From assembly GCF_056746865.1 (NCBI RefSeq), contig NZ_CM163382.1: DNA of 64,000 nt. One strand, 5' to 3'. Below, piece by piece: positions 13,434 through 16,185 of this stretch. How positions within the stretch are numbered: the stretch's first letter is position 1; each line of letters opens with the position of its first letter. A program made the translations under genes and the position numbers. The notes beneath the pieces are model-generated. The model saw only the letters and a program-made list of their open reading frames with translations, did no database searches and was not told the DNA's origin.

Positions 13434-13671
13434 GTTTATAAGGTACGGACAGCAGTATCGCTTAGTTTTTCAAATTCATGTATGTGAACAATATTGGGGT
13501 TCCGGCGTAGACCCCCAATGAAAGCGTCACCACGTGAAAACATGCCTGCACGGTTTACACGTCATCCCATGGTGGCAGCCGGTTAACTTTCCTGCGCCAC
13601 CAGTGGAAAAAGGCCATAAGCAGTCCGAACAAAAGTAAGCGTACAGCGAGGGCCGTATTGACGGGGATGTG

Positions 13672-15057
13672 TTATTCAGCTGGCAGTGCTATGCGCCACG
13701 GAAGCAGTTCGCTGACCCGGTTGACCGGCCAGTCTGCTATGACGCCAAGCACATGGCGAAGGTAGCTTTCTGGATCCACGTCATTCAGTTTGCACGTCCC
13801 GATCAGGCTGTACAGTAGCGCTCCCCGCTCACCACCATGGCCAGAGCCGAAGAACAGGGTCTTCATCTTTTCACGCAACCAGCTTTCCAGGGATTTCAAC
13901 AGCGGTTTCGTTTTTCGCTGACGTTCAGCAAGCCGCTGCTCTGCCGGCATTCCCCTTATATCCGCCTCTATGGCGTACAACTGACCGATCTGCTCTAGGG
14001 CTTCTTCCGTCAGTGCTGACGGGATGCGGACGTGCACATCGTGGATCTTTCGGCGGGCATGAGCCCAGCAGGCAGCTTCCGTTATCCCACCATTGCGATA
14101 CAGCTCGTTGAACCCGGCGTACGCATCCGCTTGCAGCACACCGCTGAAGCAAGCAAGATGAGTCTGCGGATGGATGCCTTTTCTGTCCGGGCTGTAAGCG
14201 AACCACACTGCAGGTGCCAACGCTGACCCGGCATTGCGGTCATCACGAACATACGCCCACAACCGCCCGGTCTTCGTCTTCTTATTACCCGGCAGCAGTA
14301 CCTGGACCGGGGTATCATCGGCATGGAGTTTGCCGTCAGTCATGACATAGCCATGAAGCGCCTCTTCCAGCGGAGACAGCAGCCGGCAGCATGCATCCAC
14401 CCAGCCCGACAGCAGTGAACGGCTCAGCTCCACACCTTGCCGGCCGTATATTTCTGACTGGCAATACAGCGGGGTGTGCTCTGCATACTTCGAGGTCAGC
14501 ACGCGGGCCAGCAGCCCCGGTCCGGCGATACCCCGCTCGATGGGCCGCGAAGGTGCAGGTGCCTGCACGATGGCATCGCACTGAGTACAGGCATGTTTTT
14601 CCCGTACCGTCCGGATAACCCGGAAGGCGCTACGCATCAACTCCAGCTGTTCGGCGGTATCCTCGCCCAGATAGCTCAGTGAACCGCCGCAGTTCGGGCA
14701 GCACGGCGCCGCAGGCAACAGTCGCTTTTCGTCACGGGGTAGTGATTCAGGGAACGGCTTACGGGTGCGGGTCTGACGCAACGGACGCTGTACTGCCGGG
14801 TCATACACCCTACCAGTCAGCGTATCGCTCTCTTTCTGAAGCCGGTTCAGATCGGCTTCCATTTGTGCGATACGGCGGGAGACTTTTTCGGAACGACTGC
14901 CGAAGTTCATCCGGCGGAGTTTATCCAGCTGCGCCTGCAGATGGTCTATTTCGCGCTCCCGGTTGCTCAGCTTTTCCTGCAGGGCGTGGATCAGCGCTTC
15001 CTGTTCGGCCAGGCGCTGTTTTAGCAGGAAGATGTCGTCAGAAGAGATGTCGTTCAT
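13672..15057 (-). CDS. IS66-family transposase TnpC (likely internally deleted)
   Basis: 461 aa; coiled-coil N-terminus, CxxC zinc motif, DDE core; about 50 aa shorter than typical IS66 transposases (about 510-525 aa). Confidence 0.8.
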
Positions 15058-15106
15058 AAGCCCGTATTTTACCGGGCTTATTCTGTGACAACCAGGATAA
15101 AGAGAT

Positions 15107-15454
15107 TTACAGCATGGTCAGGGAGGTCAGCAGCCGCTTGGGCTGTCGCCAGTCGATACCTTCCAGCAGCATCGCCAGCTGCGCCTGCGTAAGGAACACT
15201 TTGCCATCACGGGCTGACGGCCAGGCGAAGCGCCCACGCTCCAGCCGTTTGGTCAGGAGGCACAGTCCGTCACCGGTGGACCACAGCAGTTTAACCTGAC
15301 TGCCGCTGCGGCCCCGGAAAATGAAAACATGGCCGGACATGGGATCGTCTTTCAGCGCCGTTTGTACTTTCGCAGCCAGGCCGTTGAAGCCATTTCTCAT
15401 ATCGGTGATACCGGCAACCAGCCAAATTTTGGTCCCGGAAGGTAACGGGATCAT
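15107..15454 (-). CDS. IS66 Orf2 (TnpB)
   Basis: 115 aa, [26 protein letters not shown]... typical IS66 orf2. Confidence 0.85.
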
Positions 15455-15852
15455 CGCTTCAGTTCCTGTATCAGCAGAGTCAGGAGCTTTTCGCTGACAT
15501 TGCCATTGAAGCGGAGCGTCCCGTGCCGGAACGTTACCTCACAGCTGATACTGAGGGTTTCCGGGTCCTCTGCGAGCGATTCTGGCTGTTCGGCAGCTGC
15601 ATCGAGAGTCACAGGAAGTAGCTGGGGGCTCTCTGAAGAAGGTAATAGCAGCTTTCCCTCGCGCCATTGTTGTCGCCATTTGAACAACAGATTGGCGTTA
15701 ATGCCATTTTCAAGAGCAAGTTTTGAGATGGATATCCCGGGTTCACAGGAGGCAGCAACGAGCAGCTGTTTAAATTCGGGAGGATAATTAGGGCAGCCTT
15801 TTCGCCTGCCGGGAGTCACATTTTTCTGCATATCTGACACTTTGGTTCCCAC
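15451..15852 (-). CDS. IS66 Orf1 (TnpA)
   Basis: 133 aa HTH protein; overlaps orf2. Confidence 0.8.
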   Translation of the reverse strand: MGTKVSDMQKNVTPGRRKGCPNYPPEFKQLLVAASCEPGISISKLALENGINANLLFKWRQQWREGKLLLPSSESPQLLPVTLDAAAEQPESLAEDPETLSISCEVTFRHGTLRFNGNVSEKLLTLLIQELKR

Positions 15853-16185
15853 TACTTATTTGGTGGACACCACTTTGTCTAATTCGTCAGATTCTGACCA
15901 GACGGTTCAGGCTGTACGCTTACCACTATTTTATCCCTGTTGAATTTGGTTAAGCCGGTGCAGACGCGCCGGGAAACGCACACCTGAACCGGTACAATAA
16001 AATACAATACAACCCCCTGTTACTGGAGATACGAATGGAATGACGAGGCAGCCTGTCAGTCACAGGGGGCTGTTGGCATAAAATCAATGGAAAGGCCACC
16101 AACACCGGAATTAAGCTCCACAGTCCCCGCACTGGCAATCCATTCCCGGGAAAGGCATCACCGCAAACTGCTCCGGAGGCAACCA

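Follow-up and report, generated by a model that had tools for sequence, protein, structure and literature searches.

The 2,289-bp IS66-family element at positions 13635-15923 of the window (the whole 64-kb stretch of DNA analysed in this work) is an ordinary defective copy of the already known insertion sequence ISEc8, and it represents a degenerate member of the IS66 family rather than a separate family. We consider it very likely that this copy is defective and non-autonomous and that it has the following history. A small DUF6404 gene of plasmid type, lying in the mosaic region that separates the fec operon/IS1F from yjhU, would have received the ISEc8 insertion, the left junction of which is observed. 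An IS-end-associated deletion, or a recombination with a second copy, would have replaced the DNA on one side and produced the mismatched flanks, as flank comparisons suggest. A slippage-type deletion of 153 bp between CCTGT repeats, itself observed, would have removed residues 402-452 of TnpC and most likely catalysis with them. The element would then have been inherited with the island as a passive marker, decaying neutrally. In the presence of a working ISEc8-type TnpC it should still be movable, since tnpA, tnpB and the two inverted repeats have remained intact, and such mobilisation is the most likely origin of a second copy found in yehR.

Boundaries, gene content and identity of the element

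The initial annotation described an IS66-family element of this position and length with a 461-aa TnpC, and its coordinates, lengths and flanking sequences all proved correct (Table 1). Three consecutive open reading frames on the minus strand, tnpA (HTH), tnpB (Orf2-like) and tnpC, form the gene layout of the IS66 family, with a 4-bp overlap between tnpA and tnpB. RefSeq gene models at the locus match the ORF calls for all three genes, the ORF tool placing the tnpA start at a GTG at 15852, which makes this frame longer than the RefSeq model (15831, 126 aa). TnpC carries the Pfam domains LZ_Tnp_IS66, zf-IS66, DDE_Tnp_IS66 (PF03050) and DDE_Tnp_IS66_C, and the 461-aa protein is already present in RefSeq as WP_000998017.1, 'IS66 family transposase'. 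Pipelines thus annotate this product as an ordinary transposase despite the missing part of its catalytic domain; a 'defective' flag would be preferable.

The terminal inverted repeats start with GTAAGCG, as in other IS66-type ends. Their arms of 22 nt are 82% complementary, and the outermost 13 nt (GTAAGCGTACAGC) match perfectly. Across the 64-kb window this exact 13-mer occurs only at the two ends of the element, and the scan for it detected no second ISEc8 in the window. The ends are also fixed independently by the copy in yehR, around which an 8-bp duplication abuts exactly these terminal bases.

The ISEc8 reference was the O157:H7 copy (L002) with the RefSeq name 'IS66-like element ISEc8 family'; ISEc8 measures 2,442 bp, encodes a TnpC of 512 aa and is found in E. 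coli O157:H7 and on many plasmids. The alignment to ISEc8, which the initial annotation had put forward as a check, gave ~99.5% nucleotide identity across the 2,289 shared bases and a single 153-bp gap. According to usual ISfinder practice, two elements are the same IS if their identity exceeds 95%, and the window copy has 12 substitutions in 2,289 aligned bases relative to the RefSeq-named copy. The inverted repeats are identical in both elements, the tnpA-tnpB-tnpC order is the same, and TnpB has the same accession (WP_000612591.1) in the window copy and in intact ISEc8, while TnpA differs from that of the O157 copy by a single amino-acid change (L23 versus Q). The window copy is distinguished from ISEc8 by the 153-bp in-frame gap in tnpC, the 12 substitutions and the lack of an 8-bp target duplication. 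Copies that are 100% identical over the 2,289 bp were found in many E. coli chromosomes when 5,426 complete E. coli genomes were searched.

Table 1. Coordinates of the ISEc8 copy, its genes and ends, and the adjoining sequences (positions in the window)
Feature	Position	Strand	Evidence or comparison
Left flank: 118-bp relic of a DUF6404 gene (3' part), interrupted precisely at the IS end	13517..13634	-	93% identity to the intact plasmid gene
Entire ISEc8 element (IS66 family), carrying the 153-bp internal deletion	13635..15923	-	~99.5% identity to 2,442-bp ISEc8 outside the gap
Terminal inverted repeat, tnpC-distal end, GTAAGCGTACAGCGAGGGCCGT	13635..13656		Inverted-repeat pair; yehR copy confirms the end
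tnpC, 461 aa instead of 512 aa, single open frame with in-frame deletion	13672..15057	-	ORF and RefSeq gene model
Deletion junction, sole remaining CCTGT (ACAGG on the plus strand)	13854..13858		Alignment to ISEc8
tnpB, 115 aa, IS66 Orf2-like accessory protein	15107..15454	-	TnpB_IS66 (Pfam, PF05717)
tnpA, 126 aa, accessory protein	15451..15831	-	HTH_Tnp_1 (Pfam, PF01527); RefSeq WP_001171523.1 at the identical locus
Terminal inverted repeat, tnpA-proximal end, ACGGTTCAGGCTGTACGCTTAC	15902..15923		Inverted-repeat pair; yehR copy confirms the end
Right flank: adjoins the fucP-rbsK-deoR locus in other genomes; homology starts exactly at the IS end	15924..16270		Comparison with L013 and L014

The internal deletion in tnpC

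The single gap in the alignment covers columns 2066-2218, corresponds to 51 codons and lies between two CCTGT repeats, and it bears out the in-frame internal deletion that had been suspected from the length of TnpC. A gap bounded in this way is typical of a deletion by slippage or microhomology. The lost residues of TnpC, 402-452 (SRHSELAKAFAYALNQWPALTYYANDGWVEIDNNIAENALRAVSLGRKNFL), include E438 and the GRKN motif. Matches to the DDE_Tnp_IS66 profile extend over positions 1-222 of 284 in the window TnpC (260 bits) and over positions 1-283 in the intact protein (356 bits). The deletion spans the last 62 of these positions, with E438 in a DNNxxE motif and with the GRKN motif, and the catalytic domain is incomplete: D247 and D311 are kept and the stretch with E438 is gone.

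A search of 1.84 billion representative proteins returned 48,729 relatives, and conservation was calculated from an alignment of ISEc8 TnpC with 104 full-length relatives of 495-580 aa at 35-54% identity. Among these 104 homologs, D247 is conserved in 100%, D311 in 99% and E438 in 98%, and C330, H333, R335 and R336 are also conserved at 93% or more. Inside the deleted segment A410, Y413, G447, R448 and N450 each reach at least 93%, so that together with E438 the segment holds six residues conserved at 93-98%. The initial annotation had named family members of the same length with a 461-aa transposase as the observation that would speak against a deletion; none of the 104 full-length homologs lacks the segment, and each keeps at least 48 of its 51 residues.

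If the region that separates the two aspartates from E438 is set aside, the conserved acids are D247, D311 and E438. We take the 'DNNxxE..R' motif of E438 to resemble the third catalytic motif known from other DDE transposases with an insertion domain, and by this analogy E438 would be the third catalytic acid. E364 is conserved as well (97%), hence the assignment of E438 follows from motif analogy. Solved structures gave no match to TnpC by sequence search, and the search of the available literature library returned nothing on this deleted form and no residue-level work on IS66 TnpC catalysis. Because the conserved segment with E438 and GRKN is lost and is present in every one of the 104 homologs, the encoded 461-aa transposase is most likely inactive.

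Flanking sequences and island context

An 8-bp target duplication is documented for IS66-family elements (PMC3281130, Table 2). At the window copy the 8-bp flanks, GAACAAAA on the left (13627-13634) and CACTATTT on the right (15924-15931), do not match, in agreement with the initial annotation, which had reported no target duplication; the sister copy in yehR does have one. On the left, the relic labelled 'DUF6404, missing N-terminus' by RefSeq was compared with the intact gene on plasmid pZJ3920-1, where the plasmid sequence runs on as AACCACTCG... past the point of the IS end. The complete DUF6404 gene measures 294 bp and is intact on many F/ColV-type plasmids. A DUF6404 gene is also the site of ISEc22 insertions on many ColV/F-type plasmids, ~150 bp from the insertion point of the window element. 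On the right, the flank is 99% identical over 106 bp to one of the two compared loci (L013) and ~94% identical over ~350 bp to the other (L014), and the left neighbours of both are unrelated to anything in the window.

Judged by these comparisons, each breakpoint looks as a normal ISEc8 insertion would have left it, one at target GAACAAAA and the other at CACTATTT, and the element would thus join two once separate places. Such a configuration fits an IS-associated adjacent deletion or a recombination between two ISEc8 copies. The earlier suggestion that the element took part in a rearrangement is upheld by flank homologies that both end exactly at the IS ends and by the absence of the original partner sequences of both flanks throughout the 64-kb window. 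Probes for the reciprocal junctions (...CACTATTT followed by the left IS end; right IS end followed by GAACAAAA and the rest of DUF6404) found no genome with anything beyond a flank-only match, and this result is compatible with an adjacent deletion and with two-copy recombination, as well as with either timing relative to the 153-bp deletion.

The element occupies part of a variable stretch that is bordered by fecI/IS1F and yjhU, and it lies upstream of sgc, nanC and fimB. To its right follows a P4-like-island module that includes zinc-ribbon DUF7828 genes, YagK/YfjJ, YfjI and GTPase genes, and Ag43. The 64-kb window contains no tRNA gene. The junction of a neighbouring IS3-family insertion (18745-18864) was found in none of the 5,426 genomes.

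Distribution among E. coli genomes

The 5,426 complete E. coli genomes were searched with asymmetric junction probes, for which a full-length match is possible only across the junction. The deletion junction was detected in 2,218 genomes; for the left junction (DUF6404 relic to IS end) the count is 2,170, and for the right junction (IS end to CACTATTT...) it is 1,759. The deletion occurs without the left junction of the island in 48 genomes, and 1,518 genomes have the 153-bp segment in its intact-type form. At the protein level, 3,773 collection blocks index the exact 461-aa sequence and 11,152 a variant that differs by one residue. A single context, consisting of zinc-ribbon genes, the IS and a phytase-like gene, recurs in all 30 contigs that were read for the exact 461-aa protein, and the flanks were identical in each of the nine contigs shown from these 30. 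Across the 2,218 carriers the deleted form was detected at no more than two loci, in contrast to intact ISEc8, of which a genome can have 10 or more copies. The island copy is therefore a fixed, vertically inherited junction marker at the same spot in ~40% of complete E. coli genomes, the role that the initial annotation had assigned to it, and 2,170 of the 2,218 deletion carriers have its left junction.

In some carriers the right part of the element is gone through later deletions or insertions. For instance, it is replaced up to an AIDA/Ag43-type fragment at one locus (L016) and up to an HTH regulator gene at another (L017). Plasmid pNDM1_MY203L1, with a captured piece of the island, has a Tn3-family transposon at the right side (L015), and in strain SJ3 a further IS66-family element is inserted into the deleted copy. 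The left junction and the CCTGT deletion junction are handy and very widespread markers of the fec-yjhU island configuration; the element, a decayed copy of an IS that is already catalogued, has little general biological weight.

The second copy in yehR

A second locus matched the deletion probe in strains 2013C-3513 and 6629: the yehR gene, which is split by an identical 2,289-bp deleted element with a perfect 8-bp duplication, TGCCGTTC, on both sides. This insertion in yehR was found in 89 genomes of the O26:H11/O103/O111 type, and the island copy is also kept in both of the yehR-copy strains checked (2013C-3513 and the O103 strain RM8385). Because the identical deleted element stands in yehR with a perfect duplication, its ends are most likely still usable with a transposase supplied in trans, the other route being gene conversion of a second ISEc8. 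Most simply, a single event would have copied the deleted element from the island to yehR, with the transposase of another element. The O26-type plasmid stretches read (the first 50 kb of pO26_1 and the first 50 kb of the 2013C-3513 plasmid) gave no helper ISEc8; what they contain of ISEc8 is confined to end fragments (positions 1-115 and 2173-2442), alongside further IS66-family elements with frameshifts.

Gene conversion between the island and yehR copies also occurs, because in RM8385 the two are 100% identical and share a private SNP (T to G at window position 15566). This SNP is absent from both copies in 2013C-3513, which differ from each other by 1 SNP. It is therefore conceivable that an intact ISEc8 inserted into yehR, made the 8-bp duplication and was later overwritten by conversion, in which case the deleted element would never have moved and 'immobile' would hold. 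That yehR can be a target of the intact element is seen in seven O157:H7 genomes, which have an independent insertion of intact ISEc8 ~52 bp from the TGCCGTTC site. However, this course of events requires two steps and not one, intact ISEc8 was found at the TGCCGTTC site in none of the 5,426 genomes, and the deleted form occupies all 60 yehR insertions listed out of the 89. We regard it as unlikely.

With a single move in trans as the preferred reading, 'non-autonomous' fits the deleted element better than 'immobile'. The expectation in the initial annotation that the element is likely immobile is not fully supported, as the element type is also present in yehR with its duplication; the window copy itself is most likely inert here, because the window has no second ISEc8. 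The yehR copy of the O26/O103/O111 lineage offers a natural case in which to study trans-mobilisation or gene conversion among IS66-family copies.

Origin and decay of the island copy

Two O145:H28 genomes have the identical left junction followed by an undeleted ISEc8. This undeleted copy is frameshifted; two SNPs within its 153-bp segment are private, and elsewhere it is a mosaic of 'deleted-type' and 'O157-type' SNPs; another IS66-family element breaks it at position 2427. It appears to be an old relative of the island copy that lacks the deletion, repair by gene conversion being possible as well, and the 153-bp deletion probably arose at the island locus. The intact ISEc8 of Z1323CEC0002 (~4.59 Mb) was ruled out as a progenitor, since it lies beside a tRNA-Phe integrase and thus at another locus.

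The 2,289-bp form might instead be a natural short IS66 isoform with a fully functional 461-aa transposase, for which mismatched flanks would carry no information on activity. Three open frames, both inverted repeats intact, a single new insertion in yehR flanked by a canonical 8-bp duplication and the absence of a helper from the plasmid stretches read are what such an isoform would show. We find this hardly credible, however, given that all 104 homologs retain the segment with its six conserved residues, that the deletion ends show microhomology typical of an accident, that O145:H28 genomes have an undeleted copy at the same left junction, and that the deleted form was found at only two loci in its 2,218 carriers as opposed to at least 10 copies per genome for intact ISEc8. 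More generally, it is very improbable that the 461-aa TnpC is still active or useful despite the missing residues, a possibility considered because the yehR insertion arose in a lineage for which no intact ISEc8 helper was found in the plasmid stretches read. Had the deleted element moved alone, either the accepted placement of the third catalytic residue (E438, DNNxxE) would be wrong, or TnpA, TnpB or another IS66-family TnpC would complement the defect.

Decay of the defective copy was followed in five same-locus copies from other lineages (L018-L022), with identities of 99.1-99.7%. Independent 1-bp frameshifts in tnpC were found in two of the five, and a tnpA nonsense codon (R10*) is also present in this sample. 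Derived changes comprise 19 nonsynonymous and 8 synonymous substitutions, including W285R, L437P, Y237D and R152W. The resulting ratio of ~2.4:1 is, as an informal estimate, close to the expectation without selection. Judged by these changes, the island copy appears to decay neutrally and not to have been domesticated.

The shortened TnpC could in principle be retained for a function, e.g. as a trans-dominant inhibitor of ISEc8 transposition, and the P-element KP repressor and the Tn5 inhibitor protein are known parallels. The leucine-zipper, zinc-finger and C-terminal modules are kept while catalysis is most likely lost, the frame is open and the exact protein and its one-residue variant are very widespread. 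Among sampled records, moreover, the number of ISEc8-type places is mostly 1-2 where the deleted copy is present and ~10 in O157-type records without it, a contrast confounded by phylogeny. This idea was rejected as highly unlikely, since sister copies at the same locus have tnpC frameshifts, the tnpA nonsense codon, radical substitutions and a near-neutral 19:8 ratio, and the right part of the element is lost in many carriers.

Comparison with known systems

Among catalogued relatives, ISEc22 (~85% identity) and ISCro1-type elements (~78% in the deleted segment) have the same three genes and GTAAGCG-type ends as the window copy. They differ from it in their far lower identity and in keeping the segment that is deleted here.

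Among non-autonomous elements, Ds relative to Ac and the deletion derivatives of the P element are transposons with internal deletions that are moved in trans. Whereas that class is moved in trans, the deleted ISEc8 is known here from its sequence, with no helper found on the plasmid stretches read. Its likeness to this class consists in intact ends combined with a damaged transposase gene, and in a rare new insertion with a normal duplication in a lineage rich in related elements.

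ISEc8 insertions in yehR and probable exchange between copies

The yehR gene has received two independent ISEc8-type insertions. In 89 genomes of the O26/O103/O111 type (e.g. L023, L024 and L032) it carries the deleted form at TGCCGTTC, and in seven O157:H7 genomes an intact ISEc8 about 52 bp from that site. In strain RM8385 (O103), a private SNP (T to G at the equivalent of window position 15566) is common to the island and yehR copies (L031 and L032), and both copies of strain 2013C-3513 (L034 and L023) lack it. This pattern points to gene conversion between island and yehR copies within one genome.

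Junctions of the island copy in other genomes

The left junction of the window's ISEc8 copy, at the DUF6404 gene, is also present in O145:H28 strain RM12761 (L039/L041). The ISEc8 found there is undeleted but frameshifted. Another IS66-family element truncates it at position 2427, and beyond this lies a zinc-ribbon/YfjJ module with alleles differing from those of the window. The right-flank sequence of the window (15924-16646) is missing from this locus. Part of that sequence (15924-16270) was found again at a fucP-rbsK-deoR locus in other genomes and may represent an end sequence common to a family of integrative islands. The cargo that comes after it there is not that of the window, and in L014 includes the BREX genes pglX/brxC.

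The small DUF6404 gene itself seems to be a recurrent IS66-family target. Many ColV/F-type plasmids carry ISEc22 (~87% identity to ISEc8) within or adjoining the same gene, about 150 bp from the site where it is cut by the chromosomal ISEc8.

Other disrupted ISEc8 copies and IS3-family insertions

On plasmid pO26_1, an integrase fragment and an IS66-family element other than ISEc8 are enclosed by two ISEc8 end fragments; the arrangement, which recurs in L036, is another scrambled ISEc8 relic. The island copy of strain SJ3 is interrupted at ISEc8 positions 473-481 by a different IS66-family element, with ~8-9 bp repeated on each side. Further partial ISEc8 tnpC forms in E. coli chromosomes (H359-H361, H386-H390), whose matches to the 153-bp region end at query position 153 or 45, are additional, distinct truncations.

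Coordinates of the insertion sequences and related segments
Feature	Sequence	Position	Description
IS3-family insertion 1	window	18805-20134	~1,330 bp, rve/HTH_21 transposase
IS3-family insertion 2	window	20871-22128	~1,258 bp, rve/HTH_21 transposase
ISEc8 end, positions 1-115	pO26_1 (L035)	41092-41206	
ISEc8 end, positions 2173-2442	pO26_1 (L035)	44504-44773	
IS66-family element in deleted ISEc8	SJ3 (L040)	4509-7097	TnpC 523 aa
Right-flank sequence	L013	4001-4106	fucP-rbsK-deoR locus
Right-flank sequence	L014	4004-4339	fucP-rbsK-deoR locus
ISEc22 at DUF6404 gene	NZ_CP062915.1	49674-50375	plasmid example

Both IS3-family insertions of the window are absent from strain FDAARGOS_497, in which the region is otherwise 100% identical. 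They are recent and strain-specific, since the junction of the first was found in none of the 5,426 complete genomes. Each is flanked by a clean target duplication (5 bp and 3 bp, respectively), whereas the ISEc8 copy of the window has none.
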